Origin: a bacterium
GTDB lineage: Bacteria > UBA8248 > JACPRG01 > G963555815
NCBI GenBank assembly: GCA_965218795.1
Contig: OZ244653.1
Location: 4,480,001 to 4,544,000 of the forward strand
Reading direction: 5' to 3'
Length of the DNA: 64,000 nt
The notes under the pieces are model-generated. The model was not told the origin of the DNA, made no database searches, and saw only the letters and a program-made list of their open reading frames with translations. Positions 20,215-51,489 of the stretch are shown one piece after another. The translations under genes and the position numbers were made by a program. Positions within the stretch are counted from its first letter, which is position 1; the number at the start of each line of letters is the position of its first letter.

Positions 20215-20246
20215 GCGTTGCTCACAGCAAGAAAAATTCGAATGAA

Positions 20247-20381
20247 GGCGGCAAGGGACATCGGACAGAGCATCCGTTTCGGATGGGGCTCCGGCCGGGG
20301 GCCCCTTCGGAAGTCCAGCTTCGCTGTCATTGCCCGGCCGAACCTTAGGATTTCCCCCTGTGGAATGGGGGCACCCAAAGG
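20247..20381 (+). other. candidate structured leader RNA / antiterminator loading element
   Basis: ops-like GGCGGCAAG, then stems GGAC/GTCC, CATCCG-ttt-CGGATG, CCCCC-8nt-GGGGG and CCTT/AAGG, directly upstream of the NusG paralog. Confidence 0.45.
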
Positions 20382-20468
20382 CGAATCGAGGACGTAGTTG
20401 TTCGGGTTGATTTGCGCCCGGAAGGTCACTGTAAGTGAGAGAGCGGAGCTACGCCTGTTTCCAGAACG

Positions 20469-21056
20469 ATGGAGGAATCCATGAGCCGGTTGGGGACTAT
20501 TGAAGACAGGGCCCATGGCGTGAATGAGTTGCAGGGTGCGGTCGGACCGGGCTTCCATTGTCCCTGGTACGTCCTGCGGACGCGCTCGCGACACGAGAAG
20601 CTGACCGCCGTACACTTGAGGCAGACCGGTTTCGAGGTGTTCTTGCCTTTGGTGTCTCGGATTCGACAGTGGAGAGACCGCCGCGCACGGGTCGAGTTTC
20701 CCCTGTTTCCCGGCTATTGCTTCGTCCAGTGTGCGATTGGGGACTTTCGGCAGGTCCGAATGACTCCAGGAGCGGTGGATTTAGTAGGGACCGGGGGGCA
20801 TCCCATGCCGGTTCCGGACGAGGAAGTGTCGTCCGTCTGGCAACTCGTCTACTCTACCCTTCCCTTTGATCCTCATCCGACCCTTGATAGCGGAATGACG
20901 GTTCGGGTAATTCGGGGTCCGCTGAAAGACGTGGAGGGGACCCTCATCCGCAAAGTCCCCCACGCCAGGCTACTCGTCGGCATCAACCTTCTCAACCAGG
21001 GGGCAACCGTGGACCTGGATGCCAATGACGTGGTGCCGATCCCGGGAGGTGTATGA
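20469..21056 (+). CDS. UpxY/RfaH-type NusG-paralog transcription antiterminator
   Basis: NGN motifs WYVLRTRSRHEK, FLPL...QWRDR and PLFPGYCFV; KOW motif VRVIRGPL. Confidence 0.92.
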   Translation: MEESMSRLGTIEDRAHGVNELQGAVGPGFHCPWYVLRTRSRHEKLTAVHLRQTGFEVFLPLVSRIRQWRDRRARVEFPLFPGYCFVQCAIGDFRQVRMTPGAVDLVGTGGHPMPVPDEEVSSVWQLVYSTLPFDPHPTLDSGMTVRVIRGPLKDVEGTLIRKVPHARLLVGINLLNQGATVDLDANDVVPIPGGV

Positions 21057-21394
21057 TCGGTAGGCCCTTCTGCAAATTTCATTTATGGGCGGTCGCGCCC
21101 TGCCGATCGAAAAAGCTCAAGACGTGAGGTTGCCGGGAGGCGGGAAAATCCAAAGATGTCTTCGTTCAAGGTTGGTGTGGAACGCCGAGATGGGAGGTCT
21201 CGATCCCGAAGATGATACGTTGTCTTGCGCAGGGGGAGGAGACGAAAGGCGACGTTCAGCCTCTCACACCCTAGCAGATTTCATTCGTACCGAGACACGC
21301 CGAAGTGGGCCACGGCTCTGCGTTGCAGGGGGGAGCCGAGGATTCCTTCCACGCCAGCGGATCCCCTCAAGCCGAAACGGTCGGGTTATCCTGA

Positions 21395-22366
21395 ATGGAA
21401 ATTCTCCAGGAAGACGTCTCTGACGACGAGATGGTCTGCTATTGTCATTCCATCACATTTCAAGAGGCCATGAAGCTCTTGAAGGAGGGGAACGCAAATC
21501 CTTTGATGATGTGTCCGAGAAGACCATCATGCGTACCAATTGTGGCGCCTGTGAGCTTGAAATCAAGGAATACTTCTTTCCCGAGGAGTTGGATCTGCAT
21601 GATAAAGGGAAGCAGGCAGTTCCTTCGCAGTAAGGGGTCTGCATTTTTTCGATGGGTGGATAAGCATAGTCCCCTCATCCACCGGTCGTTCCGCCACGGG
21701 TTCCCCATTTTGATTTCGAGTCAAATCAGGACGCATTTTCGAATCATGAATGTATCTTATCCGGATGCCGCTCTTCCGATTGCTGAGCAAGATGTGTGTT
21801 TTTCTTTTTACGAGTCGACCGGGAAGATCCAATGCGAGCATCAAGCGCTCCTGGGCCCGGAGGAAATCAAGACCTTTGACATCGCAGAAATCTCAGGCTT
21901 TGACTCCGGCTCTGAAGATCTTCAAGTCGGTTATTGCATGTACACGCTTCGTCCAAAGGCTGAAGTTTACTATGGATCTTTGAGGGGATATGTCCAGTTT
22001 GAGACCTCCGGATTCGTTGCCTCGATTCATGAGCACACGTACAGGAAGAAAGGGATACGTTTTTTTATCAGCTCTCGGGATAATCTCAAGGATATGGCCT
22101 ATCTCTTTCTTCATAATTGTTATTCGATCAATGCGAAGATCAAAATCACACTTTGCGATCGGCCGGGAGATCCAATTTCGCAAAGAACCTTGAAGCTTGA
22201 ATCGCATGGTTCCCAATTGCACGCTGTCAAGGATCTTTTTCCGGATCACCTATCTTCTCCTGGTTCGGAGGCCGTTCTGATACATATCGTATCCAGGGTT
22301 CCGGTGACCCCCACTTTCATTTACTGGGACCGGAAAACGGGGATGATCTCGGCGCAACATTTTTAG
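21395..22366 (+). CDS. hypothetical protein with N-terminal BFD-like [2Fe-2S] domain (second Cys pair in -1 frame)
   Basis: CYCHSIT in the main frame. 'KSFDDVSEKTIMRTNCGACELEIKEY' lies in the overlapping frame (21442-21633). Confidence 0.6.
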   Translation: MEILQEDVSDDEMVCYCHSITFQEAMKLLKEGNANPLMMCPRRPSCVPIVAPVSLKSRNTSFPRSWICMIKGSRQFLRSKGSAFFRWVDKHSPLIHRSFRHGFPILISSQIRTHFRIMNVSYPDAALPIAEQDVCFSFYESTGKIQCEHQALLGPEEIKTFDIAEISGFDSGSEDLQVGYCMYTLRPKAEVYYGSLRGYVQFETSGFVASIHEHTYRKKGIRFFISSRDNLKDMAYLFLHNCYSINAKIKITLCDRPGDPISQRTLKLESHGSQLHAVKDLFPDHLSSPGSEAVLIHIVSRVPVTPTFIYWDRKTGMISAQHF

Positions 22367-22399
22367 GCTCTCAAAGCATATACGGAGAGACGGTGCCAT

Positions 22400-23211
22400 A
22401 TGGCGATTCAGACATCGATTCCGGAGATTTTATGGCTTCCAGGCGTTGATCATTATGAGATTTCGGTTTACTTCTCGTGTAACCAATCGTTCATCCATGA
22501 TGTCAAACCTTCTATTCAAGGCGTTGTGAGTGAACATGCCTTCAGCATTAACTGCACGCTGTACGTGAACGGAAACCCTTATCAACGGAAAATCGAAGAT
22601 CGTTTGATGGTGAAGGAAGAGAGCGAGAAGCGCATCCAGAGCTTCTCCTTCCTCCCTGATGCCTTGAGAAGGGAAGAGAATTGTTATCTGGAGTGCTCCC
22701 TGACCACAATGGATGGCTTTTTCGAAAAGATGCCCCTGTCCCCCCCCTTTTGGCTGAAGGCTTGGAAGGAGGGTTCCTTTTTTTATTACCCTGCAATTCC
22801 GACGCATGGGGTCAGGGCGAGTTCTCTGGTTCCCGGAAAGACCAGGTTTTGTGAGCAATTTCCGGCGATCACTTACGAACCGACGCGAGACATGACCACG
22901 GCGCTTGCGATCGTCAATCCGCGAAAGAGAGCGATCCGTGTCACGGTTCAAATGTTCCCGAATCCGAGGGACGGGACGAGCACGACTTTGAGCTGCCTGC
23001 CCACATGGTCCGGGTTCTTCGTTTGCACGAACACTTTGACCTTCAAGGACGGGAAAGAAATTCCGGAGTCCTCGTGCTGTCAGAGCACAGGCCGATCATC
23101 TACTCCGCACATATGAATATCTCCGGCAACGAGATCTATTCGGTGGACCACACCGATGCTTGGCGCACCGAGGAGACGCAAAAGTCGGCGGTTCCGCTCA
23201 GTCTGTACTGA
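22400..23211 (+). pseudogene. hypothetical protein, frameshift near 22975
   Basis: ORF 22400-23116 appears to continue in another frame as 'HDFELPAHMVRVLRL...YSVDHTDAW' to the stop at 23211. Confidence 0.55.
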
Positions 23212-23690
23212 CGCATGAAAATTGCAAAGGCTTTGGTCAGAGGCAAATAGTTCATCTCCTGATGGCAGTGGAAACAGAATACCTTCTTCCGCCTTCCGCT
23301 GAGGGAAAAGAACGGGTTCGAGAAATGTCCTCCTCACTTCAAGCGATGCCTGGACCTCTACCTCAAATTTCTGGAACCGATACAGAACCGGATCTCGAAG
23401 ATCCCCAAGGAAAGTCGAACGGACCTTCAGAGGGTGATTGTTGAAAAGGCCACCAATCCGCGCTGGCTTTTTCGGGATATCCAGAGATGGGTGCCGGACC
23501 GGGAATACTACAATCTTCTCCTGGTTCGAAATCCCGAGTCGGCAACGTCTCCGATCCCGACGAGAGCGCCTATCGTCCCCTATCCCCCGATGTGCGCGGA
23601 ATGGGGACGCTTTCCTCTTCATTCTATGCGGCCGCGGGATTGCAAAAATGGCATCCGGGTGAGGAGCTTCCGAGGGAGAAGGGTTTCGAG

Positions 23691-25517
23691 GTGAAGCGGC
23701 GCGAACACGCAAAAAGGAGCGATTTTGTCGAAATCCTCCAGATTGTCTTACGTTTTTCCAGCATTAGACGGTGGAACTTCGCCATTTTTATCTTCTTGAT
23801 CTTACTGGCGACCCTGTTCGAAGGATTTGGGGTCGCCATGCTGTTGCCCGTCCTGGAGTTCGTGGAAAATCAGGGGGATATTCAGGTCCTCCTGGATTCC
23901 TCTCCCTACTGGAAGCATATTCTGGCTGTTGCGGACTGGTTTTCCGTTTCCGTCACGTTGGCCTCGCTGAGTGCAACTGTCCTGGCTCTTTTAATCGTGC
24001 GTCAGGCCTTCACCTATGGCAGTGCCGTGTACAGCAGCTGGTTGGGGGAGACCATCCTCTCCGACCTCCGCAGCACCGGTTTAAGCCTCCTCCTTCGGGC
24101 TGACGTCGCGTTCCACGAAAAGATAGGATCCTCGAAAACAATTAGTTCATTGACGATAGATGCTTACCAGGGACGAAATTCAGTCGGATCCTTCTTCTCG
24201 ATGATCGGGGCATCCTTGATCCTCCTCTTTTATCTAATCCTCTTGTTCGCCCTGTCCCCGATCATGACCCTTGTGGCCGCGGCTGTCATGGGGATTGTCG
24301 GATTTGTCTTACGGACCCGAGTGAGATGGGTGCGACAGCTCGGTGAGCAAATTTCAAGATTGAACGATTCGATGTCCAAGGTGGTTTCAGAGCGGATGCT
24401 CGGCAGCCGCGTGATCAAGATGGCCGCTTCGGAGTCTCGTGAGTCGGAACGGTTCTCTGAAGTGGTGAAACAGATGAAAACCGCCAGCGTGAAGGTGGCA
24501 AAGATCGTAGCCGGGGTGGAGGCGATTGTGGACCCCCTGGTGGTCGCAGCCGGTCTGTTCATCCTTTTCATGGCGGTGGAATTCTACGGTGCGGCGCTTT
24601 CCAAGGTCGGGATCTTTCTCCTGGTGCTTATACGGCTGCTTCCCTATTCAAAGAATTTGCTGAAGTCCCGCCAGAACTACGTTGCCGCTTTGGGGAGCTT
24701 GCGGGCCGTAACGAATTTGCTCTCCGACGCCAAAGGCGCGGACGTCATCCGGGGAGGGTCGCGGCCGTTCAATTCTCCGAAGAGAGAGATCACCTTCGAC
24801 AAAGTGCGTTTTTCCTATAGCCAGGAGGCGCGTCCGGCTCTGGACGACGTTTCATTCTCGATTCCGGCCGGCAAGATGACCGCCTTGGTCGGACACTCCG
24901 GTGCTGGCAAGTCGACCTTGGTCGACTTGATCCCGCGCTTGCGCCAACCGCAAAAGGGGCGAGTTCTCGTTGATGGGGTTCCCATAGAAGAATTTCGCCT
25001 TGCCGATTTGAGGCGAGCCATTGCGTTCGTTCCCCAGGACTCGTTTCTCTTCGACGACACCCTGGCGAACAACATCCGCTACGCGCGCCCCGAAGCCAGC
25101 TTGGAGGAAGTCCAGGCGTCGGCCCGGCTGGCGTATGCGGACGGTTTCATCGAAGCCTTTCCCGATGGCTATCAGACCCGCGTGGGTGAGCGCGGTGTTC
25201 GCCTCTCGGGGGGGGAGCGGCAGCGCATCGTCCTGGCGAGGGCCCTCCTCCAGAAGACCCCAATTGTTGTTCTGGATGAGCCGACGAGCGCACTGGACTC
25301 CGAATCGGAAGCCTACATCCAAAAGGCGCTGACGCAGATCCAGGCTGAGAGGAAAACGACCTTGATCGTCATTGCTCACCGGCTCTCAACGATCAAGACG
25401 GCGGACCAGATCGTCATGCTGGACAAAGGGTCTGTAGCGGGCTGCGGCAGTCACGAGGAGCTGATCGACCAGGTCGCCTGGTACTCGGGAGTTGCCACCG
25501 TCCAGGCTTCCGTATAG
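23691..25517 (+). CDS. ABC exporter, fused permease/ATPase (PglK/MsbA-like flippase)
   Basis: TM domain with 'FEGFGVAMLLP'. Walker A GHSGAGKST, signature LSGGERQR, LDEPTSALD and IAHRLST. Confidence 0.92.
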   Translation: MKRREHAKRSDFVEILQIVLRFSSIRRWNFAIFIFLILLATLFEGFGVAMLLPVLEFVENQGDIQVLLDSSPYWKHILAVADWFSVSVTLASLSATVLALLIVRQAFTYGSAVYSSWLGETILSDLRSTGLSLLLRADVAFHEKIGSSKTISSLTIDAYQGRNSVGSFFSMIGASLILLFYLILLFALSPIMTLVAAAVMGIVGFVLRTRVRWVRQLGEQISRLNDSMSKVVSERMLGSRVIKMAASESRESERFSEVVKQMKTASVKVAKIVAGVEAIVDPLVVAAGLFILFMAVEFYGAALSKVGIFLLVLIRLLPYSKNLLKSRQNYVAALGSLRAVTNLLSDAKGADVIRGGSRPFNSPKREITFDKVRFSYSQEARPALDDVSFSIPAGKMTALVGHSGAGKSTLVDLIPRLRQPQKGRVLVDGVPIEEFRLADLRRAIAFVPQDSFLFDDTLANNIRYARPEASLEEVQASARLAYADGFIEAFPDGYQTRVGERGVRLSGGERQRIVLARALLQKTPIVVLDEPTSALDSESEAYIQKALTQIQAERKTTLIVIAHRLSTIKTADQIVMLDKGSVAGCGSHEELIDQVAWYSGVATVQASV

Positions 25518-25539
25518 CGGAAGGGGAAGGATCGATTCA

Positions 25540-27081
25540 ATGGAGGCAGTCGTCATCTGGGCGGGCTCCAACTTTAGTTGGCTCTGGGCCTCACTGGCCG
25601 AGAAACTTCGGGCCGAGACGGGGGTGCGGGTCAGCTTCGTGTGCAACACGGAGTTGGACGTGGGCTATTTCAAGGCGATGGACGTCTCGGGCGCCGTAGC
25701 CGACTTCACGACCGTTAATCGATTCTTCCATCTTTACGACGATGTGGACGAGGACGAGGAATCCATCATCCGTCGAGCGCGGAAGAATGAATCGAAATAC
25801 GGTGTCTCGGTGACGGACCTTCTGCAAGTAGACCGGCACCTGGGGCTGGGTTTTTCCCCACTGGGCAGTGGACACCCCAGGTCCCGGTTGAACCGGAAGG
25901 CTTCCTACCTGAAGTCCATCCATTTCTTTAATCGGGTGATGGACTACTGGGAAAATTACCTGAACGAACGCCGGCCAGATCTCATTGTGAACCCGGCTGG
26001 CACCTTCGTGGGCAAGGGATGCGCGGTCGTGGCCCGGGCGCGCGCCATCCCCATCCGGCACATCTCCTGGTCGAGGTACCAGGAATACTTCTACTGGGCT
26101 TTCGATGAATTGGAGCAAGTCCCATATCTTCGGACGGTTTACGACTCCATCCCGCCCGAAACGCATGATGGGCCTCAGGCAATCGTCCGAAACCCGAAGG
26201 CGGAAGCTTGGCGGGAGGATATGATTCGCCGTAAAAGCGTTTTGTACCTGCTCTGGCTTTTGGGGCGCAGTGTCCTTTATGAGTCCTACAGGAAGCTCAG
26301 AAGGGTGACGATGCCGGGAAATTACCTGCTGACGGAGCGGTGGAAGAGTATGATTCGGACCTGCCTGGATTTCAAGCGGCTGAACCGCCGCCGTCTTTTT
26401 ACAATGGGAGACCTGAAAGGCAAGGATTTTGTCTTCTATCCGCTTCACACCGAACCCGAGACCTCCTTATCCGTCTTGTCGCCGGAGTTTAACGAGCAGC
26501 TCGCGATTATCCATCTGATCGCCAAGAACCTTCCCGCCGGCGTCACCCTGGCTGTCAAGGAGCACCTGTACGGCATTGGCGGCCGACCCGCGGGTCTTTA
26601 CCGCTCTTTAGAGCAGATCCCGAATGTGGTCATGGCATCCCCGTATGAAAACGCCGTGGAGTTGGCGAAACTGAGCAAGTGCGCGATTGTCATCACGGGC
26701 ACCTTGGGCCTGGAAGCGGCGGCCTTGGGGGTTCCCGTCATTTCTTTCGGCCAGCACAACATCTATGACTTCGTTTCCCACGCCCACGTGGTCATCTCCT
26801 GGATGGAGCTCCGAGAGCTTCTTTCCTCAATTTGCCTCGGAGATGACCCTCAGGCCAAGGAACGACGCGGCCGGGACGGGGCCCGGCTTCTGCACGCTAT
26901 CCGCCAGATCTCCTTTGACCTGTCTGGAATTGAATGGTCCCACGGGATGGGGACTCCCAGCAAAAAGAAGCGACCTTCACCAGAAGTGGTCGATCGTATA
27001 TTCCTTCCCCTGATGGAAAGCCTCCAAGAGAGCATGTTGGAGGATTTGGGAACCGGAGGGACCCACGTTGCGACCCGCTGA
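25540..27081 (+). CDS. KpsS/Capsule_synth-like GT-B protein (candidate ulosonate transferase)
   Basis: Motifs FYPLHTEPE, VKEH and ITGTLGLEAA..G.PVI.FG. Confidence 0.7.
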   Translation: MEAVVIWAGSNFSWLWASLAEKLRAETGVRVSFVCNTELDVGYFKAMDVSGAVADFTTVNRFFHLYDDVDEDEESIIRRARKNESKYGVSVTDLLQVDRHLGLGFSPLGSGHPRSRLNRKASYLKSIHFFNRVMDYWENYLNERRPDLIVNPAGTFVGKGCAVVARARAIPIRHISWSRYQEYFYWAFDELEQVPYLRTVYDSIPPETHDGPQAIVRNPKAEAWREDMIRRKSVLYLLWLLGRSVLYESYRKLRRVTMPGNYLLTERWKSMIRTCLDFKRLNRRRLFTMGDLKGKDFVFYPLHTEPETSLSVLSPEFNEQLAIIHLIAKNLPAGVTLAVKEHLYGIGGRPAGLYRSLEQIPNVVMASPYENAVELAKLSKCAIVITGTLGLEAAALGVPVISFGQHNIYDFVSHAHVVISWMELRELLSSICLGDDPQAKERRGRDGARLLHAIRQISFDLSGIEWSHGMGTPSKKKRPSPEVVDRIFLPLMESLQESMLEDLGTGGTHVATR

Positions 27082-27313
27082 GAGTCTCAGACTCACAGGG
27101 CGGAAGTGGGGGGAGCCGGGACGGAGTGACCGCCCTTGAGCTTGGGTGGTTGCGGTGTCGTCTTGGGGATGGATGTTCATCGGGACCTACTGGTGGCGGA
27201 GGCGGATTCCTTATCCCGGATGAATATCGGGCCTTCAGCGGCACCCCTTCACGCGATGTCCTCTCTTTGTGGAATCGGCATTCCTCCCGGTTGCCTGAAG
27301 AACGGAAAGCTGA

Positions 27314-28930
27314 GTGAAATCCAGAACCCTTCTTGACGTTCGCTCCGTCATGCGCGAGGGCGTCGAAGTGTGGCAGAAATATTTTTTCTGGCCCATCTCG
27401 ATCCATGACGGCCCCCGACTCTACGCTGACTTGAACGATGTTTTAAAGCGGATGATAAAAGAGTGCGCCGACGAGGAGATGAAGAGGGTTTTGGTGGTGG
27501 GTTATCTAGTAGCCTGGGAATGCTGTCAGCCCCTCATGGCCTTGAAGCAGCTTCAATCCCTGGAAGGTCTGGGATATGATCCGGTTCCGGGGTCTCAGTC
27601 CGATCTCTATCGGGCCCTGCTTGAGGGAGAGCCAATCCCCGGCCCCTTGTCAACGAAGATGTGGGATATTTCCCGTCTTCGCTTGAAGACCGCGCTGCGG
27701 ACTCCCATTAACTTCTACTTTTCCTGGAAGTACAACTTGGCGGCCGGCAAGTTGCCGCGACTGGGCGGGTCGAAGGAGGGTCGCCGCTGGGTGGCGCTGT
27801 ATCAGCCGGGGCCCGTTTGCGAGAACTTCATGGCCACCCTCCCCCATTGGGTCCACGTCCGGTTGATTGTCACGTGGTTCAATCATGGCGGCCTCCCTCG
27901 GCTCTCCGATGATTTGGATCGAAGAATTGACCGACAGGTCGAGAAGTGGGTCTCCGGGGTGGAAGAGGTGGCAGAGCGGCACGACGTTCGGGTGAAGGAT
28001 GAGATTCTTGAGCACACCGGGGCTGTGGCTGCCACCATTTTTCGCCGAGTGGCCAAGGACCTGATCCGGGTTCGGGACGCCCTGAGGAGGGAAGGGCCGA
28101 TCCACTACCTGGGCGTCAGCGGCACAAACTATTATTCTCGCATACTGAGTCTTATCGTGTCCGAGCTTGGCGGGACGGTGACGGCCTTTAGTCATGGGGG
28201 AGACACCTGTCGTTACCTGCGGGATTACTCCATTCTCGAGTTCTCCACGTGCGACAACTTTGGGGTCCAGAACGCCAACTGTGCCGGCTTGTTCCAGCAT
28301 GTCTTCGAGGTCTTTCCACCGCCATCGAACCGCCGGGTTCAGTTCCTGGCGGCTGGAGACCCTCAATATCTGTCTGCTTGGCGGCAGAATCGTTCCCGAG
28401 GGGCGCCAACCCGGATCAAGCGGGTCATGTTGATTGGAGAGGCATATCATGGAGATCGATTCCTGCCCTTCCAATATCCGGATTTGGTGAGACTGGATTT
28501 CAAGTGGCGCATTGTTCAGACGCTCCGGACTGCAGGCTATCAGGTGCTGTATAAACAACATCCGGGGGGGATCTTCAGAGGCGAACAGATCGATTGCTTT
28601 CCGCCGGATGTAGAAGTTGTGCGCGCCCCGTTCGAGACAGTGCTGGACCAGGCGGATGCCTTTGTGTTCCCCAACAGCTACTCCACCACCATGCCGTATT
28701 CGCTCTGCACGCAGAAGCCGGTCATTTATCTCCGGACCGGTTTCGAACCTTGGTTGGAACAACCCTATGAGTTGTTCAGCAAAAGGGCGCAGGTTGTGCC
28801 CTGCGGGGTGGATGAGCGAAATCGAATCGAGTTTGACGAGCAGGCGCTCTTGAGAGCCCTCAGGGAAAGACCGGAGAAACCCGACGAGGGGTTCTTGCGT
28901 ACCTATCTCATTCCCGAGGGGCTTTCCTGA
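27314..28930 (+). CDS. hypothetical GT-B-like protein
   Basis: 538 aa ORF with SHGG, YKQHPG and 'STT...LCTQKPVIYL', resembling polysaccharide transferase C-domains. Confidence 0.55.
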   Translation: MKSRTLLDVRSVMREGVEVWQKYFFWPISIHDGPRLYADLNDVLKRMIKECADEEMKRVLVVGYLVAWECCQPLMALKQLQSLEGLGYDPVPGSQSDLYRALLEGEPIPGPLSTKMWDISRLRLKTALRTPINFYFSWKYNLAAGKLPRLGGSKEGRRWVALYQPGPVCENFMATLPHWVHVRLIVTWFNHGGLPRLSDDLDRRIDRQVEKWVSGVEEVAERHDVRVKDEILEHTGAVAATIFRRVAKDLIRVRDALRREGPIHYLGVSGTNYYSRILSLIVSELGGTVTAFSHGGDTCRYLRDYSILEFSTCDNFGVQNANCAGLFQHVFEVFPPPSNRRVQFLAAGDPQYLSAWRQNRSRGAPTRIKRVMLIGEAYHGDRFLPFQYPDLVRLDFKWRIVQTLRTAGYQVLYKQHPGGIFRGEQIDCFPPDVEVVRAPFETVLDQADAFVFPNSYSTTMPYSLCTQKPVIYLRTGFEPWLEQPYELFSKRAQVVPCGVDERNRIEFDEQALLRALRERPEKPDEGFLRTYLIPEGLS

Positions 28931-29119
28931 CTTCTTGTTGAGAACGGGTTCGGAAGGGGATTCGATTCGCCCAGTCCGGCGCGCATGGAAGGTTGGTGAC
29001 GCGATGTGGATCGAACCACCGAATGTGGCCTTTTCCGAGCAGGTGGTGACGCCGAGTCGATCCCTTGCTTTTTGGCGGTCCAGGACGGGAGGGCCCTGTT
29101 TGCTTCAGATGTTTCAGCG

Positions 29120-30046
29120 GTGACGGTCAAGCAATCCCTTGGGACTCTCCTCATCACCGGCGCCAGCGGCCTCTTGGGAAGCAATCTATGCTTTCACTTT
29201 CGAGAGCGTTGGCGCATCGTCGGTTTGTACTGTCAGAATCCCTTGTACATGGAAGAGGTCGAAGGCTGCTCTGTCGATCTGCTGGATTTTCGAACCCTGG
29301 ATGCAATCGGCGACATCGTCCCTGACGTGGTGATTCACATGGCAGCCCATGCGAATGTTGATTCGTGCGAGGCGAATCCGAGCGAAGCGCGGCGGCTCAA
29401 TGTGGGTGCAACGCGGCACCTCAGACATCTTTGGCCCGATGCGTATTTTGTCTATGTTTCCACGGACAGCGTGTACGGCCAAGGGAAAGGGCCTCATCAA
29501 GAAGATGGCGAACTCTGTCCTCTGTCGGTCTATGCCCAAACGAAGCTTGAGGGAGAGGCCGCGGCGATGGAGATCCCCGCCCGGACCTCCGTCCTTCGGA
29601 CGTGCATTTACGGGGTGAACTACCAGACCAAGGAGAGCTTGGCCGAGTGGATGTGGAACCGACTTTCATCGGGTGAGGGTTTCGATGGGTTCACCGACGT
29701 TTATTTTTCGCCGATTCTCGTCAACGACCTGGCTCGGGTTCTCGAGGCCGTTATCGAGCGGCCTCTCAAGGGGACCTACAATGTGGGTTCGGTCGAGGGT
29801 TGTTCAAAGTTCCATTTCGGGCGTCGGTTGGCAAAGCTGGGGCGGTTTGATCCCGCCCTGGCTCGCCCGAAGCAGGGCGGGGCCCTCCAGTTGCGTGCGC
29901 CCAGGCCGTTATCTCCGTTAATGGACGTGGAGAAAGTCCAGCAAGCTCTGGGAAAATCCATGCCGAGCGTGGAGGCGGGGCTCGAGAGTTTTTGCGCGCT
30001 TCTGCAGGGTGGGTATCAGGAGCGGCTCAGAGGAAGCAGGTCGTGA
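29120..30046 (+). CDS. RmlD-like SDR (dTDP-4-dehydrorhamnose reductase family)
   Basis: Motifs ITGASGLLG, STDSVY and YAQTKLEGE. Confidence 0.85.
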   Translation: MTVKQSLGTLLITGASGLLGSNLCFHFRERWRIVGLYCQNPLYMEEVEGCSVDLLDFRTLDAIGDIVPDVVIHMAAHANVDSCEANPSEARRLNVGATRHLRHLWPDAYFVYVSTDSVYGQGKGPHQEDGELCPLSVYAQTKLEGEAAAMEIPARTSVLRTCIYGVNYQTKESLAEWMWNRLSSGEGFDGFTDVYFSPILVNDLARVLEAVIERPLKGTYNVGSVEGCSKFHFGRRLAKLGRFDPALARPKQGGALQLRAPRPLSPLMDVEKVQQALGKSMPSVEAGLESFCALLQGGYQERLRGSRS

Positions 30047-31089
30047 AGCCTGTGATGATAGATAAGCGAAAGGTAGGACCGGGCGAGCCTGCCTTCTTCA
30101 TCGCAGAGGTGGGATCCAACTTCGATGGAGATCTGAAACGTGCACGCCTGTTTGTGGATCTGGCCATTGAGGCCGGAGCCGACGCCGTCAAGTTCCAGAG
30201 CTTTCTCGCAGACCGAATCATTGCGCCGGAGGGTTTCACCCAACAGACGGATTTTCAGGCCCGGTGGAACAAGTCGGTGTATGAGGTGTACTCGGAGAGC
30301 GTTTTCCCCAGGGAATGGCACCGTGAGATCGCCGAGTACAGCCGCGAGCGCGGCATCCTTTTCTTATCGAGTCCTTACGATCTGGAGGCGGTCGAACTGC
30401 TGGTCGAACTGGGTGGGCCCGCTTTGAAAATCGGGTCGGGCGAGATCAACAATCTCACTTTCCTGGACCTTTGCGCCCGGCAGGGCCTTCCCTTGATCGT
30501 CGGGGTGGGGGCCGCCACCTTGGCTGAAGTGGATGAGGCCATGCAGGTGTTCCGTGCCGTCGGCAATGAAGACGTTGTCCTCCTCCAATGCGTGACGAGT
30601 TATCCGAGCGCGTTTGAGGATTCCAACCTGCGGGCCATGGTCGCGATGGGAGAGATGTTCGATGTGCCGGTCGGTTATTCGGACCACACGCCGGGGAACG
30701 TCGTCCCGCTGGGGGCGGTGGCGCTTGGCGGTTGCGTCATCGAAAAGCACATGACCGACGATCGCACCCGCCAGGGCCCGGACCACTCCTTCGCAGTGGA
30801 GGTGGCCGAGTTTCGGCAGATGGTGGAGGACATCCGGAAACTGGAATCAGCCCTGGGCAGCCAGACCAAGGGGGTGATTCCGGCTGAGCACGAAACGGTC
30901 ATCCTTCAGCGGCGTTCGCTATGGGCGGCTCAAGACATCCGAGCCGGGTTCGTTCTCAGCCGGGAAATGGTGGACGTCCTCAGGCCCCAGAAGGGAATCC
31001 TTCCGAAGGATCTGGACAAGGTTTTGGGGCTTCGGCTCACGCGGGACGTCCAGGCCGGTCAGCCACTGACCTGGGAGCACTTCAAATAG
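30043..31089 (+). CDS. N-acetylneuraminate/nonulosonate synthase family (NeuB/PseI/SpsE), copy 1
   Basis: Motifs IAEVGSN, ADAVKFQ, KIGSGE, GYSDHT and IEKH; C-terminal SAF domain. GTGA overlap with the previous gene. Confidence 0.93.
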   Translation: MKPVMIDKRKVGPGEPAFFIAEVGSNFDGDLKRARLFVDLAIEAGADAVKFQSFLADRIIAPEGFTQQTDFQARWNKSVYEVYSESVFPREWHREIAEYSRERGILFLSSPYDLEAVELLVELGGPALKIGSGEINNLTFLDLCARQGLPLIVGVGAATLAEVDEAMQVFRAVGNEDVVLLQCVTSYPSAFEDSNLRAMVAMGEMFDVPVGYSDHTPGNVVPLGAVALGGCVIEKHMTDDRTRQGPDHSFAVEVAEFRQMVEDIRKLESALGSQTKGVIPAEHETVILQRRSLWAAQDIRAGFVLSREMVDVLRPQKGILPKDLDKVLGLRLTRDVQAGQPLTWEHFK

Positions 31090-32132
31090 ATGAATGCGGA
31101 GATTCTCGTCCACTGCACCGTGGGGGACCGATCCGGGGCCGGTCATCTTTTTCGGTGCTTGACGCTGCAGACGCCTTGCAGGCGAGGGGATTTGATTCCA
31201 CCTTCCTGCTGGCCGACCCCGCCGCTGCCGCTCAAGGGTGGGTGGAGAACCGAGGGCATCGCCTGGAAGCCTTTTCGTCGGAAGACCCGCCCGAGTGCGG
31301 TCGGATTATCGAAACCTTCCGGAGGGGGAAATTCTCCTTCTTGGTGATGGACGGCTACGTCTACGGAAGTGATCATTTGGCTGAGTTGAGCCGGGCGGGC
31401 ATTCTCACTCTCTATATGGATGACATGATGGAGCTCGGCGAGTACCCGTCCGCTCTGGTCTGCAACCAGAATTTTTATGCGAGCCCGGAGAGTTATCGGG
31501 TTCCGGACAGCACCCGTCTTCTTCTGGGTCCCCGCTTCGCCCTGATTCGCGAAGAGTTTCGACTGGGGCGTGAACAAGGGAACCGGAACGGCTCAGAGAG
31601 GGCTTCTCGATTGCTGATCGCAATGGGGGGATCGGATCCGACGCAACAAACGGACAAGGTGCTTCGGGCCCTGGAAGGTTTGGATCGGAGACTGGAGGTG
31701 ACGGTCGTGGTCGGCGGGTTGAACGCGCGCCTCGCCGAAATTCAGGCCCAGGCCCGATCGCTTCGGGGGCATCAGGTCCGGGTCCTCTTCAGTGTGCAGC
31801 ACATGAGCAAGGTGATGGCAACAGTCGACCTCGTGGTTTCCGCCGCCGGAGACACGAGCTTTGAGTTCTGCATGATGGGGCTGACGGGACTCGTCATCGC
31901 CAACTCACCCCTTCAGATGCGCATTGCCCGCGGTCTTCAGGACCGTGGACTCTTCGTCAATCTGGGATGGTACGAAGACGTGTCAGAAGACTTGATCCAA
32001 CGGGAACTGGCCTCCTTGCTGGAAGACGCCGACCGAAGATGCGCGATGAGCCAGAGGGGCATCGAGGCGGTCGACGGCCAGGGAAGTGGACGGGTCGCAA
32101 CGGCGATTGAGGAGTGCCTGCGGGTTGGCTGA
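31090..32132 (+). pseudogene. pseG: PseG/SpsG nucleotide-sugar hydrolase, frameshift near 31166
   Basis: 'GAGHLFRCLTL' is in frame 31090. 'ADAL...MDGY...LLGPRFALIREEF...MGGSD...VDGQGSGRV' is in the other frame. Confidence 0.8.
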
Positions 32133-32349
32133 GGCCCTGGAAAGGTGCGAATGCCCGTCCGGCAAACGGCCTCATGGGGTGCCGGCAGGTTCAGAACCTC
32201 CACGCGCTGGGGGCTGATGGACGGATCCTGCGTTTGCCCCGAGACGCCCGTCTCTCACCCACGGTCCTTGGGGAGCCGCCCGGGGCTCCTCATCCCTATA
32301 CCCGGGTTTTGAAATGCCAATCTGGTCCAAGAAGACTCCTTTGAGGGCA

Positions 32350-33456
32350 ATGGCCGGGCGCGATCACGTGGAGACCTGGTTCTCCCAGGGATCTCCGGAA
32401 GACGAGGGCCGCGCTTACCAGGTGAGTGTCCGATTGGGGAAACCCGTCGACATTCTCACCCTGAAATCCAATGTCATCGAAGGATTCGGCTCTTATGTCT
32501 CCCACATGAGATCGGCCGGGACCCTGCTGTTTCAGTCGGCGGACTTGGAGGAGGTCTTGGCGTGCCCCGTGTGCAGGTCGGCCAACGTCGCCGACCTGCC
32601 CAGCCTCACCGTCTACGGGGGGGGGGGTACTGCCAGTGTGCCGATTGCGACCACTACTTCGTGGGCAAGCGGCCCTCTGAGGAATCTGTCCGGGAGTTCT
32701 ATGCGCAGGATACTTTCTATGCGGACACCTACACCGATAAGCGGACCGCCGAGATGAGGGTTCAACAGATTGCGATGTCGAAGGCCGAGTGGATGGCGGA
32801 TCAGTTTTCCGCCCTCTACGGCCGGAACCCTGAAACGGTCCTTGATGTGGGAGCGGGTAGCGGACATTTCGTTCATGCCTGCAGGCGGATGGGCATCGAA
32901 GCCCGAGGGATCGAGATCAGCGATTCAAGCCGCGAATTTTGTCGGTCACAGTTCGGCTTCGACCTGGAAGACGTCGATTTTCTAGAAGCGTGGCAAGATT
33001 ACTCGCCCGTGGACATTGTTACCTTTTGGGGCGTCATCGAGCATGTTACCGAAGCCCATGGGACTGATGCATACCGCCCGGAAAGCAATCCGTGAGGAGG
33101 AGTCGCTGGTCGTGGCGGAAGTCCCCCGATGGGACTGCCTCGGAACGGCCGTCCAGAGCGCCTACTCGGACTCCATCGTTCGTCATCTGAATCCGATCAG
33201 TCACATCCACTGTTTCACCGACACTTCCCTTGCCACGGTGTTCGAGTCCAGCGGCTTGGCACCAGCGGCCGCCTGGTACTTTGGAATGGACGCGTATGAG
33301 CTGGCCGTGCAGTTGGCCTACCACGCCCAAGAGGACAATATCTTGAGATCCATCGGCCAGCACATCCCCTCTTGGCAGGCTTGCCTCGATGGGGGCCGGC
33401 TGTCCGATGAAATTGTCGTCGCGGGGAGACCAATCGCGGCCGAGGGGTTCGCGTAG
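32350..33456 (+). pseudogene. class I SAM methyltransferase with Zn-finger, split by G11 tract and second frameshift (~33053)
   Basis: CPVC in frame 1, CADC...LDVGAGSG...FWGVIEHV in frame 2, and PM...AEVP in frame 3. Confidence 0.8.
32617..32627 (+). repeat. G11 homopolymer tract
   Basis: gtctac-G11-tactgc. It is the longest homopolymer I saw in the window and it lies at a frameshift. Confidence 0.9.
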
Positions 33457-33468
33457 CGGGAAGTCAAA

Positions 33469-33708
33469 TTGCGCACGGGTCTTCGCCTTTCATTGGATCA
33501 ACTGATTGAGGAAGCCGATGAACTTCTGCATCGCGCTTTTCCGATTGGTCGGGGTATCACGGGGGAGGGCGTTCGAGAGACCCTGTCGATGTGGAGAGAA
33601 GTGGTCGATTTTGAGATTCATAGAGTATTATTTGGATGGTCAATTAACGTCCAAACAACCGACTTTGATTCGGCAGCCCTAGCTGGTTTCGAGTGCGTTT
33701 TGCGTTGA
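33469..33708 (+). pseudogene. DUF4910 aminopeptidase-like protein, N-terminal remnant
   Basis: 'AFPIGRGITGEGVRETL...FEIH' resembles the family's LFPICRSITGNGVRETL start; truncated. Confidence 0.6.
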
Positions 33709-33877
33709 ACGCCCCTGCCGGTCTTCCCGATTCCTTGCGCCCGCCGGATCCGATATCGACAGCGTTTTCTTCCCGTGACCTTTTGAAGATTCCCTGGCGG
33801 CCCCGGTCAGTTTTCTGGGACCTCCTCCGGTCGATCTCGCCCGGGGAGTCCTCAAGGGCGCCCCGGAGGAGGGACGG

Positions 33878-34552
33878 GTGATCCAGCCCGTTCGCGCCTT
33901 TGTTCAGGCCCGGATGACTTCTCGCCGGTTTCCCGGAAAGGTCCTTGCGCCCTTTCGAGGCGAACCGCTCATCCGGCGCGTCCTGGGGGTCTTGGAAGCA
34001 GCGTTGCCCGGGGTTGCCGTCACCGTCGTCACCAGCACCGATTGTACGGACGACCCTTTGGCCGCCTATCTGGAGACCGCTGGCGCGTCTGTGTTTCGGG
34101 GACCCCTGGAGCGGGTCTTCGATCGCTTCCGCCTGTGCATGGTGAACCATCCCTGCGAGTGGGTCCTTCGGGTCTGCGCCGATAGCCCTTTGCTGAACCC
34201 TCACGTCCTTGAAGCAGTCGTCCACCGCGCCGAGGGCTCCGATGCCGACTTGGTGACGAACATCTTTCCCCGCACCTTTCCCAAAGGGCACAGCGCGGAG
34301 ATGATCCGGGTCAGCCGGTATCTGCAAATTGATGTCAAGGTTCTTTCCGATCAGGATCAAGAGCATGTGACGCCCTATTACTATCGGAACCCGAAACAGT
34401 TTCGGATCGCCAACGTAGCGTCCGGCGATTCCCGTCTTGCCCAGATGAACGTGGCCGTGGAGACCGTCGAAGACCTTTGGCGGCTGGAGCGGCTTTCAGA
34501 AAAAGAGATCCGAGGGCTGTGGAACGAGGCTTTGCCCGCAAGTCGGGGTTGA
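33878..34552 (+). CDS. SpsF-like cytidylyltransferase
   Basis: Motifs QARMTSRRFPGKVL, RVCADSP, PRTFPKG and EHVTPY. Confidence 0.9.
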   Translation: MIQPVRAFVQARMTSRRFPGKVLAPFRGEPLIRRVLGVLEAALPGVAVTVVTSTDCTDDPLAAYLETAGASVFRGPLERVFDRFRLCMVNHPCEWVLRVCADSPLLNPHVLEAVVHRAEGSDADLVTNIFPRTFPKGHSAEMIRVSRYLQIDVKVLSDQDQEHVTPYYYRNPKQFRIANVASGDSRLAQMNVAVETVEDLWRLERLSEKEIRGLWNEALPASRG

Positions 34553-35562
34553 AGGAGTCCCAAGAGCTGGGCGTTGCCGTGATCGGCCTTGGGGTGGGAG
34601 AGCAGCACGCGCGGGTGTACGCCCGCCTGAAATCGTGCTCGCTGCGATGGCTCTTCGACCTGGATCCCGCCCTCGTGGATCGGGTGGCGCAGGAACTCGG
34701 CGAAGCCCCATCCGCCGAGGACATCGAGACCATCCTTGACGACCCTTCCGTGGACGTTGTATCCGTCGCTTCCTATGACGATGCTCACTTTCGTCAGGTT
34801 CTGGCGGCGCTGCGGGCAGGGAAGCACGTCTTCGTCGAGAAGCCGCTCTGCCGGTCGCGCGATGAATTGCGGGAGATCAAGCGGGCGTGGTCGGAGGGCG
34901 CCGACCGTCACCTTCTCTCCAACCTGGTCCTTCGAGCCGCCCCCCTGTACCGGTGGCTGAAGGAGGCAGTGGAGGGGGGGGAGCTGGGCGAGATTTACGC
35001 TTTTGACGGCGACTATCTCTACGGGCGACTTTGGAAGATCACGGACGGCTGGCGGAAGGACGTAGTGAACTACTCGGTCATGCAGGGAGGCGGCGTCCAC
35101 TTGGTGGACCTGATGCTTTGGATCACCGGCCAGAGGCCCGTCTCTGTCGAGGCTGCCGGCAACCGGATGAGTACGGAGGGCACGGAGTTTCGATACAACG
35201 ATTACATGTCTGCGACCTACCAATTCGCCTCGGGACTGATCGGACGGATCACCGCCAACTTCGGCTCCGTCCACCCTCACCAGCATGTGGTCCGGGTCTT
35301 CGGAACGAAAGGGACGCTCATCTATGACGATCAAGGACCTCGATTGTTCAGCTCTCGGGATCCGGAACTCCCTGCGAAGTTTCTGGACCTGTCCCCCCTG
35401 CCCGCTTCCAAAGGCGACTTGATCCCCGATTTCGTAAAGTCGATTTCGGACGGCAGCGACACCCGAGCGGCAATCCATCACGAGTTTGACCTGATCAGCG
35501 CGTGCACGGCGGCCGATGAGGCCTTGGCCGCAGCGACCCCGGTGGAGATCGAATACGTATGA
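34549..35562 (+). CDS. Gfo/Idh/MocA oxidoreductase
   Basis: Motifs VIGLGVG, GKHVFVEKP and GGVHLVD. Confidence 0.9.
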   Translation: MKESQELGVAVIGLGVGEQHARVYARLKSCSLRWLFDLDPALVDRVAQELGEAPSAEDIETILDDPSVDVVSVASYDDAHFRQVLAALRAGKHVFVEKPLCRSRDELREIKRAWSEGADRHLLSNLVLRAAPLYRWLKEAVEGGELGEIYAFDGDYLYGRLWKITDGWRKDVVNYSVMQGGGVHLVDLMLWITGQRPVSVEAAGNRMSTEGTEFRYNDYMSATYQFASGLIGRITANFGSVHPHQHVVRVFGTKGTLIYDDQGPRLFSSRDPELPAKFLDLSPLPASKGDLIPDFVKSISDGSDTRAAIHHEFDLISACTAADEALAAATPVEIEYV

Positions 35563-36728
35563 GACAAGCCGATCAGGTTCGCGACATCCCATTCGGTCGA
35601 CCCTGGATCACGGAAGAAGACCGCCAGGCGGTGATGGAGGTCCTGCAGGGCCCCATCCTGACCCATGGTCCTCAGGGCAAGGCCTTCGAGGCGGAGTTCG
35701 CGGAGTTCATGGGCGAAGATGTCCATTGCCTGACGGTCAGTTCCTGTATGGCGGCCCTTCATTTGGCCTATCTCCACTTCGGCATTGGCCCGGGGGACGA
35801 CGTGATTGTGCCCGCCCAGACGCATACGGCCACCGCCCACGCCGTGGAGTGGGTCGGAGCCACGCCTGTTTTCGTGGATTGCGAGCCGGCCACCGCCAAC
35901 GTGACCGCAAAGTCCGTGGCCGCTGCTGTCACCCCCCGCACGAAGGCCATCTCTGTCGTGCATTTTGTCGGGATTCCATGCGATATGCCCGGCATCATGA
36001 GAGTAGCCGAGCATCACGGACTCAAGGTGATCGAAGACTGTGCTCTGGCCCTGGGGGCGTGCTGGCAGGGGAAGCACGTGGGCCTTTTTGGCGATGCGGG
36101 ATGTTTTTCCTTCTACCCGGTCAAGCACATCACCACCGGGGAAGGAGGGATGTTCATCACGCGTCACGAGGGGGTCGCCCGGGGAGTGAGGGAGCTTCGG
36201 GCCTTCGGCATCGACCGGACGCACACCGAGCGGAGCCTTCCAGGGATGTACGACGTCCCCGTCCTGGGACTCAATTATCGGATGAGTGAGCTTCAGGCGG
36301 CCCTCGGGAGAAATCAGCTTTCGCGCATCGGGGAAATCCTGGGGAAGCGCAAATCCAATTTTGAGACCTTGAGATCCAGGGTGAACGAGCTGGAGGGGGT
36401 CCATGTCCTCGATGCCGCCGAAGGAGACGCGCAGAGCAGCCACTATTGCCTGACGCTTGTTTTGGAGGGAGAGCTTCGGTCGCGACGTAGTGAAATCCAG
36501 GGCCGACTGAGAGAAGCGGGGGTCGGCACCAGTATTTATTATCCCCGTCCGGTCCCACGAATGACTTATTACCGGGAGAAGTACGGCTACGATTCGGCCG
36601 GCTATCCCTATGCATCGGAGATCAGTGACGGCTCTGTCTCATTCCCGGTGGGACCACACGTCCATGAGAAAGATGTGAGCTACATGGCCGATGTCATCCG
36701 CCAGGTTTTGGGAAAGGATACCCCATGA
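35559..36728 (+). CDS. DegT/DnrJ/EryC1/StrS sugar aminotransferase
   Basis: Motifs IEDCA, FSFYPVKHITTGEGG and GLNYRMSE. Confidence 0.95.
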   Translation: MRQADQVRDIPFGRPWITEEDRQAVMEVLQGPILTHGPQGKAFEAEFAEFMGEDVHCLTVSSCMAALHLAYLHFGIGPGDDVIVPAQTHTATAHAVEWVGATPVFVDCEPATANVTAKSVAAAVTPRTKAISVVHFVGIPCDMPGIMRVAEHHGLKVIEDCALALGACWQGKHVGLFGDAGCFSFYPVKHITTGEGGMFITRHEGVARGVRELRAFGIDRTHTERSLPGMYDVPVLGLNYRMSELQAALGRNQLSRIGEILGKRKSNFETLRSRVNELEGVHVLDAAEGDAQSSHYCLTLVLEGELRSRRSEIQGRLREAGVGTSIYYPRPVPRMTYYREKYGYDSAGYPYASEISDGSVSFPVGPHVHEKDVSYMADVIRQVLGKDTP

Positions 36729-37771
36729 CCATCGAATTACGAGGGCGCAGGGTCGCTATCATCGGCGGGGCGGGGTTTATCGGTCACAATCTGGCCCTGG
36801 GTCTGGCCCGGAGGGGGGCCCAGGTGGAGGTGATCGATAGCCTGCAGGTGAACAACCTGGTCTCGTTCTCCTCCAAGATGCCCGATCTTTACAATCGTGA
36901 CTTATACCTGCGCATCATCCATCAGCGGCTGGATCTTCTCCACAATGAGGGAATCCCGCTTCACGTGCAGGACGCCCGCGAGTATCATGCCCTGGGGGCG
37001 CTGCTCAATCACAAGATCCAGCCCCACGTCATCGTACATTTGGCCGCGGTGGCGCATGCCGGAAGAGCCAACAAGGACCCTTACAGCACGTTCGATCACA
37101 GCTCCCGCACATTGGAGAACGCCCTGGACTGCGCTCGAGGCAATGTCGAGCAGTTCATTTTTTTCTCGTCCAGCATGGTCTACGGAGATTTTCAAACCGA
37201 TGCGGTCGACGAAGAGCACCCCCTGAACCCCATCGGCATCTATGGGGCGCTCAAGGCCGGGGGGGAGAAGCTCGTTATCGCCTACCAGCAGGTGTTTGAT
37301 CTGCCCTACACCATCATCCGGCCCTCGGCCCTGTACGGGCCCCGATGCGTCAGCCGCAGGGTGGGTCAGGTGTTCATCGAGAATGCGATCCAGGGATCCG
37401 GGTTAAGGGTCGAAGGCGATGGCACGGATCGGATTGACTTCACGTTCATTGACGACTTGGTCGAAGGAATTCGTCTCGCCATCCAGATCCCCGCTGCCCG
37501 CAATCAAATTTTCAATATGACCTGTGGCAGCGCTCGTTCGGTCCGGGATCTGGTGGCCATCGTCCAAGAGCACTTCCCTGACGTGGAGGTCGAATTCGCC
37601 GAACGTGACAGACTGATCCCTTCTCGCGGCACCCTGAAAATCGACAAAGCGGCTGAGCTTTTAGGGTACGCGCCCAGGTATCCCTTGGAAACGGGTTTCC
37701 CGAAGTACATCGAGTGGTACAAGGAGCTGACGGCCGAAGGACCGGGGGGCGGGGCCCGAAACGGACCATGA
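36725..37771 (+). CDS. NAD-dependent epimerase/dehydratase
   Basis: Motifs GGAGFIG, SSSMVYG and YGALK. Confidence 0.92.
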   Translation: MTIELRGRRVAIIGGAGFIGHNLALGLARRGAQVEVIDSLQVNNLVSFSSKMPDLYNRDLYLRIIHQRLDLLHNEGIPLHVQDAREYHALGALLNHKIQPHVIVHLAAVAHAGRANKDPYSTFDHSSRTLENALDCARGNVEQFIFFSSSMVYGDFQTDAVDEEHPLNPIGIYGALKAGGEKLVIAYQQVFDLPYTIIRPSALYGPRCVSRRVGQVFIENAIQGSGLRVEGDGTDRIDFTFIDDLVEGIRLAIQIPAARNQIFNMTCGSARSVRDLVAIVQEHFPDVEVEFAERDRLIPSRGTLKIDKAAELLGYAPRYPLETGFPKYIEWYKELTAEGPGGGARNGP

Positions 37772-41349: not shown

Positions 41350-41383
41350 GAAGGGCATTGGCGAGAAGGACACCGTCGGTTCG

Positions 41384-45608: not shown

Positions 45609-45669
45609 CCCGGCGCGAACACTCCTTCTTGGCGGATGGCCCCCGAAAGTCGATGAATAGGAGCGGAGA

Positions 45670-46419: not shown

Positions 46420-46422
46420 AAG

Positions 46423-51488: not shown

Positions 51489-51489
51489 C

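Follow-up and report, generated by a model that had tools for sequence, protein, structure and literature searches.

The 64,000-nt stretch of bacterial DNA analysed here, in the following called the window, carries one behind the other a gene for a winged-helix regulator, an intergenic leader, a gene for a NusG paralog of the UpxY family and a long run of glycan genes on the same strand (Table 1). Shortly before the paralog gene the leader contains a sharply bounded motif of 29 nt, which is near-invariant in related loci and probably represents an ops/opsX-type site at which the paralog encoded just downstream is loaded. A first-pass annotation had placed the regulatory signal further upstream, in a group of stem-loops at 20247–20381, which are referred to below as the flagged stem-loops.

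Table 1: Features at the regulator–paralog locus (positions in the window).
Feature	Position	Strand	Evidence or remark
Winged-helix regulator gene, 202 aa	19606..20214	+	Pfam HTH_24 3.1e-09, MarR 1.2e-06
Intergenic leader between regulator and NusG paralog	20215–20468		254 nt; encloses flagged 20247–20381
Variable spacer with flagged stem-loops, unconserved as element	20215..20428	+	Alignment and fold tests
ops/opsX-like motif, 29 nt	20429..20457	+	Window copy CTGTAAGTGAGAGAGCGGAGCTACGCCTG; nhmmer, alignments
Upstream half, TGTAAGTGAGAG	20430..20441	+	Putative upstream-duplex recognition part
Mini-hairpin core GCG-R-AGC	20443..20449	+	GCG-G-AGC in window
Predicted pause point, T/A or C/G step	20450..20453	+	Motif positions 13–16
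UpxY-family NusG paralog gene	20469..21056	+	Pfam NusG 2.6e-21; NCBIfam UpxY
Same-strand glycan genes, putative target	21085..57739	+	~37 kb

The paralog can be assigned to the UpxY family, as it reaches 107.8 bits (E 5.3e-31) against NCBIfam UpxY NF033644 and thus exceeds the cut-off of 100. It stays under the cut-offs for RfaH (86.0 and 48.8 bits against TIGR01955 and NF006534, with cut-offs of 144.5 and 124), for LoaP (53.4 bits against NF033641, cut-off 125) and also for housekeeping NusG in NCBIfam. Only one other NusG homologue is present in the genome beside it, showing that there is one specialised paralog only. The longest open reading frame (ORF) begins with ATG 20469, which has no ribosome-binding site; judging from the GGAGG five bases upstream (20471–20475), ATG 20481 is likely the true start rather than 20469. 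An AlphaFold2 model calculated from a 74-row alignment (mean predicted local distance difference test score, pLDDT, 78.5; predicted template modelling score 0.71) contains an NGN domain with a pLDDT above 90 and an all-beta C-terminal domain with a pLDDT of 58–83, and the first 24 residues counted from start 20481 (28 from 20469) are predicted to be disordered and are unconserved. In this model the paralog looks like an open NusG-type factor and differs from RfaH with its autoinhibited alpha-hairpin, and the predicted all-beta C-terminal domain would fit the idea of an operon-encoded, cis-acting paralog as it is put forward in PMC13015549. Two stretches of the protein show little or no variation, namely R-S-R-H-E, with which the first NGN helix begins, and the basic beta-hairpin W-K/R-D-R-R/K; in analogy to RfaH and UpxY they would be in contact with DNA.

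The regulator encoded upstream reaches 62.2 bits against NCBIfam MarR_EPS TIGR04176, which is under the cut-off of 88, and syntenic orthologues of this 202-aa protein with 61% and 66% identity precede the paralog in a relative of the same genus (G001) and in one of the same family (G003). Only one sigma-70-like site was found in 19400–21600 (19466–19494, TTGACA-17-TATGTT, 10/12, a consensus match only). As this sole site lies ~110 nt 5' of the regulator gene, regulator, leader and paralog may form a single transcript. Neither a terminator-like nor a promoter-like site was found in the leader 20215–20468.

A conserved motif in front of the paralog gene

The motif was first seen in a three-way alignment of leaders as a near-invariant block close before the start codon. 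Further copies were recovered with a regular expression followed by two nhmmer rounds (E ≤ 1e-3) at loci with homologues of the paralog from genome and metagenome contigs, and the collection searched in this way comprised 172 homologous loci with 722,714 nt on both strands. We obtained 88 matches in 86/172 loci, and all 88 of them lie on the strand of the paralog. They follow the consensus C-TGTAAGTGA(G/A)AGGGCG(A/G)AGCTGTG(Y)C(Y)G with 13 invariant columns in 70 distinct copies and still 12 in 79 copies when divergent ones are included, and the edges of the motif are sharp, the flanks of the 70 copies having less than 0.4 bit. The motif is thus near-invariant, whereas the paralog proteins are merely 40–63% identical to each other.

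The motif is also rare. One match was found in the window against 0.02 expected, and the 5.17-Mb genome holds one copy (E 7.4e-08), the runner-up having an E-value of 2. A search for the exact IUPAC pattern in 51 genomes of the phylum gave 9 matches, all of them within ~650 nt of a paralog match, and the reversed pattern used as control gave 0. From five further genomes 4 possess exactly one copy, which in 3 of them is located at the paralog locus. In the complete genome G061 the only copy lies ~23 kb 3' of the paralog, in the same orientation and flanked by a GT1 gene and a gene for a MurJ-like flippase, and this layout hints at an action at a distance within the cluster; the regulator–paralog pair of this genome (L027) is without an adjoining motif and the lone copy belongs to locus L185 (G061:C1:476474-479493). 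The motif strings were not found in our literature search, which also gave no link of opsX or UpxY to these phyla outside Saba et al. 2024.

Relative to the paralog the motif is found in different places. In 31 copies it is located at the paralog start, where the NTG at motif positions 14–16 is the first in-frame start and the TGA of the motif closes the frame; counted over 71 copies this NTG is the first in-frame start codon of the paralog in 33, with GAGG 8 nt upstream. Nine copies are located 120–170 nt upstream of the paralog, including the one in the window, which has ACG in place of NTG, and 31 copies form a ‘far’ class at 250–740 nt upstream with a gene in between. At six loci the motif follows just after the paralog and precedes a regulator or flippase-like gene (L006, L007, L008, L009, L011, L167), the regulator being next in L007, L008, L009 and L011 and a flippase-type gene in L006, as is likewise the case in G061. 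The common denominator of all these placements appears to be the head of a downstream operon on the coding strand.

Two side observations concern the surroundings of the motif. In all 26 ‘far’ loci examined (including L021, L023, L028, L031 and L064) the intervening ORF encodes a four-helix-bundle protein of the 23S-rRNA-intervening-sequence type (PF05635, E 1e-27 to 1e-36, 26/33 ORFs of at least 90 aa; e.g., L023:2073-2447). The ORF after the motif is MNT-like in L065, according to its N-terminal sequence as judged by eye and not by a family search, and HepT-like in G061 according to Pfam; small selfish genes seem to insert preferentially into the stretch behind the motif. The second observation concerns G003, which has three paralog loci (contigs C160, C224 and C581; L004, L014 and L015) and a motif variant of its own at each of them. 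At two of these loci the motif occurs twice, ~423 nt apart, and an ORF with a paralog-like N-terminus comes after the first copy, which suggests a partial duplication.

Core, upstream half and predicted pause point

Taking the G of GAGAG as position 0 (20437 in the window), the motif consists of TGTAAGTGA(G/A)AG at −7 to 4, GCG-R-AGC at 6–12 and TGTG(Y)C(Y)G at 13–20. Within the core the bases G, C, G, A, G and C are invariant in 70/70 copies and the loop base alone varies (A 38, G 32). DNA of the sequence GCGNAGC is reported to form a mini-hairpin of two G-C pairs, a sheared G-A pair and one loop base, with melting temperatures of 76, 73, 71 and 70 °C for N = A, G, C and T, and its stability is described as not being accounted for by standard thermodynamic models (PMC13037366). 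An invariant GCG/AGC with a free N is the pattern that one would expect of such a mini-hairpin with a GNA loop. We also considered the loop base as a specificity code. It changes 13 times on the protein tree, also among close relatives, and 146/500 shuffles are as low (quick IQ-TREE tree; rows with stops, rows below 140 aa and identical rows were dropped), showing that the flips between A and G are too frequent to be informative.

The same core is known from Bacteroides, where according to Saba et al. 2024 UpxY is recruited to paused polymerase by opsX sites of ~40 bp, with class-1 sites forming the non-template hairpin 5'-YGCGNAGCR with ‘GCG..AGC stems’ as in ops (PMC11685472). The NGN domain of UpxY is reported to read the upstream duplex as well, with exonuclease III protection at −21 to −24 and −31 to −34, and a NusA-stimulated RNA pause hairpin to aid opsX (PMC11685472). 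The oligonucleotides in the supplement of that paper carry GCGAAGC and GCGTAGC cores (PMC11685472), and GCGAAGC is the core in 38/70 of our copies. Further features are shared with UpxY (YX) of Bacteroides fragilis, as a UpxY-family paralog with a basic NGN beta-hairpin would head its own polysaccharide operon, each paralog has a single cognate site and conserved sequence is present upstream of the hairpin. In contrast to class-1 opsX, the core is flanked here by purine and T (G-T 61, A-T 4 of 70) and not by Y and R, but these flanks are still pairable in 69/70 copies. The upstream half is another sequence ending at about −24, and the whole site has a length of ~29 bp compared to 40. The 70 copies gave no evidence of a conserved RNA pause hairpin, the start codon overlaps the site in 33/71 copies and is located at +41/42 or +9 in Bacteroides, and the host phyla differ.

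A similar comparison is possible with ops of E. coli (GGCGGTAGCGTG, PMC11880322), for which a non-template hairpin with the loop G4–A7, the stem pair C3:G8 and T6 flipped into RfaH has been described (PMC5995543); hairpins of both ops (GCGGTAGC) and opsX are reported to recruit NusG paralogs (PMC11685472, PMC5995543). Our motif and ops share the arrangement GGCG...AGC...TG over 12 nt and, at the level of sequence, a small non-template hairpin with GCG/AGC stems, and in both cases the site is located in the leader of long glycan operons and the protein is a NusG paralog. The distance of 12 nt from GG to TG is kept in the consensus GGCG-R-AGC-T-GTG and in ops GGCG-GT-AGC-GTG, as the loop is one base shorter and the spacer one base longer. 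The loop differs, with one base (R) here and two (GT) in ops, and there is no T to be flipped. From the 12 bases of ops the consensus GGCGRAGCTGTG matches 7–8 and the window copy AGCGGAGCTACG 5, and RfaH acts in trans at many sites, compared to a single site per genome here, which is located beside the gene. Two tetraloop variants from NC10-type bacteria have the spacing of ops itself, namely GCG-CA-AGC in L101 (2070–2110) and GCG-CG-AGC in L037 (3349–3389), each followed by CTG so that the 12-nt frame GGCG..NTG is retained; both sites lie 850–1120 nt 3' of the start of the paralog match. Their sequences fit a distance constraint between GG and the Y-G step as in a consensus pause.

Motif positions 13 and 15 are pyrimidines in 70/70 copies, resulting in Y-G steps at 13/14 and 15/16. 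A consensus pause has the formula G−10, Y−1, G+1. Because of the Y-G steps after the hairpin and the G two helical half-turns upstream, we predict a pause at 20450–20453. The C of AGC occupies −3 in E. coli and in Bacteroides; with this register a purine would come to lie at −1 here. The ops element is called the ‘exemplar of a consensus pause’ (PMC5995543).

Upstream of the core the near-invariant block stops sharply at position −8. As Bacteroides UpxY contacts the upstream duplex (PMC11685472), we infer by analogy that the upstream half might be a duplex recognition part. It was also considered as the 3' arm of a conserved RNA hairpin, which was rejected as the pairing is no better than in shuffles; a 10-bp hairpin including the upstream half can be formed in G001 alone.

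As its core is the same as in the published hairpins, the motif can be placed into the ops/opsX kind, with GCG-R-AGC in 70/70 copies and a position on the coding strand that adjoins the operon or lies upstream of it. Within this known kind it would be set apart by a distinct and widely conserved upstream half. From these sequence comparisons we consider it rather probable that 20429–20457 is an ops/opsX-type loading site for the UpxY-family paralog encoded just downstream.

Several findings weigh against this assignment. From the 172 loci 86 are without the motif, mostly those of Rokubacteria, Acidobacteria and many NC10-type clades, and loose look-alikes were seen in few of them only (L041, L170 and, on the other strand, L077); such loci may use other signals, with GGCGGTAG-type sites as candidate in Acidobacteria. 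The window copy itself has A, A and C at positions 5, 14 and 15, where the consensus has G, G and T. Nearest-neighbour DNA folding of the motif did not give a mini-hairpin (z = −0.80, −0.34 and +1.81), and a conserved RNA pause hairpin was not detected in the 70 copies, where pairing of −7 to +2 with upstream sequence amounts to 3.46 compared to 4.06 in shuffled sequence (mean z −0.41) and only 60.8% of cells pair in a local hairpin of five pairs. Since NTG is the paralog start in 33/71 copies, part of the conservation on the 3' side may be translational, and as the ‘far’ class keeps NTG in 18/31 copies the pause point is uncertain. Finally, the motif goes along with the regulator as well, a homologue of which is present in 55/86 motif-bearing loci, and 55/57 regulator-bearing loci have the motif.

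Flagged stem-loops and alternative explanations

The first-pass annotation had interpreted 20247–20381 as a multi-stem pause or antitermination RNA analogous to the Bacillus EAR RNA or LoaP hairpins, starting with GGCGGCAAG as a core similar to the RfaH ops element. The sequences it quoted are indeed in place (GGCGGCAAG at 20247–20255, GGAC at 20256, GTCC at 20313, CATCCG-ttt-CGGATG at 20271–20285 and CCCCC-8nt-GGGGG from 20355), and RNAfold gives hairpins resembling those described. However, their stability is ordinary for a G+C-rich sequence, as the minimum free energy of the 135 nt is −63.6 kcal/mol with z = −1.60 and 11/200 dinucleotide shuffles are equal or better, and for the entire 266-nt leader z is −0.32 with 74/200 shuffles as good. 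The leaders of G001 and G003 have fold z-scores of −1.65 and +0.16. The putative core turned out to be a chance string: GGCGG-type cores of the form GGCGGNAG number 20 in the window where 15.95 ± 3.96 are expected, which is chance frequency, and GGCGGCAAG fails to fit even this pattern.

The flagged stretch is not conserved either. In a blastn search of the leader against 60 relatives the sole match comprised leader bases 216–246 (window 20430–20460) in one genome, G001. We aligned the syntenic leaders of the window (254 nt), G001 (218 nt), G003 (199 nt) and the metagenome locus L097, which resulted in a mean column identity of 47% with the flagged stretch not being alignable; window 20215–20237 is opposite gaps in all three other leaders, and ~20255–20294 is opposite gaps in two of them and set only against unrelated sequence of G001. 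RNAalifold, which together with pair counts served for the covariation analysis in place of CMfinder and R-scape, found 0 consensus pairs in these four leaders. A cmscan of 19000–22000 against Rfam gave only CC3513 with 19.5 bits and E = 1.6 at a cut-off of 40, and thus no family for the flagged element, and there were 0 Rfam matches at E ≤ 1 in 8 related loci. The annotation was right in stating that the sequence is not the enterobacterial JUMPstart element, as the covariance model RF01707 finds nothing at E ≤ 10 in 19000–22000, its best match in the genome lying elsewhere with 20.7 bits against a cut-off of 35. JUMPstart and our motif are alike in being a conserved leader block before polysaccharide genes that ends in an ops-type core.

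With neither conservation nor covariation in homologous leaders, no unusual stability and no Rfam family, the flagged stem-loops are not a real element and, by the standard that the annotation itself had set, the proposal of a multi-stem RNA is refuted. What has survived is the idea of an ops-like element specific to this clade of paralogs, which is present in the leader at 20429–20457 and hence outside of 20247–20381. That the stem-loops nevertheless are a species-specific cis-regulatory RNA is highly improbable: they fold somewhat better than shuffles, as does the leader of G001, but neither their sequence nor their structure is conserved in the syntenic leaders, G003 and the whole leader show no such tendency, the leader has no terminator-like U-tract and Rfam gives the sub-cut-off CC3513 only. 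Moreover, the stretch lies upstream of the loading site, out of reach of any factor loaded at that site. LoaP also is a NusG paralog, and its leader hairpin and EAR are, like the site proposed here, cis elements for the readthrough of long secondary-metabolite or exopolysaccharide (EPS) operons, but they are structured RNAs, and in the leader analysed here no conserved RNA structure or Rfam match was found.

The 29-nt motif itself could also act as RNA, either as a translational-operator hairpin or by being bound by the KOW domain of the paralog as proposed for LoaP. In the operator form a nascent GGGCG/YGYCY hairpin (positions 4–8 with 15–19) would cover the Shine-Dalgarno-like GAGG together with the start codon. 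Indeed 91.6% of cells pair in 79 copies compared to 33–76% for shifted partners, the changes at the three variable 3' positions are confined to C and U opposite G, and the NTG with its upstream GAGG coincides with the paralog start as described above. Nevertheless, we regard this explanation as unlikely, since column shuffles pair equally well (91.4%) and one cell only has a change on both sides, leaving the helix without covariation support. In the ‘far’ class and in the window the NTG is no gene start, yet the 5' two-thirds of the motif are invariant, and the invariant GCG/AGC with its free N suits a DNA mini-hairpin better. For Bacteroides, recognition is described as occurring via the NGN domain and DNA and not via an RNA hairpin (PMC11685472). 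The 4–8/15–19 RNA hairpin is compatible with the observed copies and could also act later, on the start codon. Even less probable, in our view very unlikely, is a duplex-DNA operator for the adjacent MarR/EPS-type winged-helix regulator or a promoter part for the operon. Motif and regulator occur together in 55 loci, the regulator without motif in 2 and neither in 84, and the motif always lies between or beside the two genes; but this co-occurrence among kin is not independent evidence, and no regulator is seen in 31 motif-bearing loci, of which 12 comprise at least 5 kb of sequence. Furthermore, the motif is non-palindromic and strictly polar (88/88), its core is that of the published non-template hairpins and, with regard to a promoter, there is no conserved −35/−10 at a fixed distance (flanks below 0.4 bit) and no sigma-70-like site in the leader.

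Proposed loading of the paralog and its putative target genes

For an ops/opsX-type site at 20429–20457 we propose the following model. RNA polymerase coming from an upstream promoter, possibly the one before the regulator gene, would pause a few bases past the core at ~20450–20453. The non-template strand in the open bubble would then fold the GCG-G-AGC mini-hairpin with two G-C pairs, the sheared G-A pair and one exposed loop base. The NGN domain of the paralog would bind this hairpin together with the adjoining upstream duplex (TGTAAGTGAGAG; with a pause at 15/16 this corresponds to about −24 to −11), and the paralog would displace housekeeping NusG and travel with the polymerase through the ~37-kb glycan operon, thereby suppressing pauses and termination. 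A further idea is that of a fused signal, in which the pause point would be the start codon of the paralog, as the positions coincide in 33/71 copies, and pausing and the loading of factor and ribosome would take place at one spot. If true, this would be a self-priming cis-acting loop in which the new paralog boards the polymerase transcribing its own operon, and the predicted all-beta C-terminal domain fits such a non-autoinhibited factor, but we consider the fused signal unlikely.

The glycan genes on the strand of the paralog extend to at least 57.7 kb and this run of ~37 kb is a putative operon headed by the paralog. It includes genes for an ABC exporter, capsule synthesis, an RmlD-like protein, two NeuB, a PseG-like protein, a cytidylyltransferase and DegT, as well as formyltransferases, Asn-synthase-like proteins, methyltransferases, GT1 and PMT_2-like proteins. 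ORFs on the opposite strand at 33.6–35.6 kb have no family, and the ORFs overlapping them on the paralog strand do. The three ORFs after the paralog (21085–21423, 21395–22366 and 22400–23116) have no Pfam family at E ≤ 0.01. Pfam includes a UpxZ model and, differing from Bacteroides, no UpxZ-like partner was found by Pfam in these three ORFs.

As side observations, the gene content of 29006–39740, with two NeuB-family synthases (29992–31089 and 38391–39740), a PseG-like hydrolase, a cytidylyltransferase, a DegT aminotransferase and formyltransferases, is the set for a nonulosonic-acid sugar pathway of the pseudaminic/legionaminic type. At the upstream edge of the glycan region (15888–17504) an integrase gene of the insertion-sequence type (rve, rve_3, HTH_21; 16425–17504) adjoins a 137-aa enoyl-CoA hydratase fragment covering only the first 110 of 251 profile positions, and the hydratase gene looks as if it has been cut by the insertion.

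In summary, the regulatory signal of the ~37-kb glycan operon would be moved from a chance stem-loop to a precise and mutable 29-nt site. In reviews up to 2021 the recruitment mode of operon-encoded NusG paralogs was called unknown (PMC7593976, PMC7819879). Our analysis suggests that the principle of the GCG-N-AGC non-template hairpin from E. coli and Bacteroides extends, in combination with another upstream half, to UpxY-family factors elsewhere, namely in Nitrospirota-labelled and NC10-type (Methylomirabilota-labelled) environmental bacteria. The two loop-length variants represent a natural test of the spacing rule and the motif might serve as a practical annotation marker for such operons.

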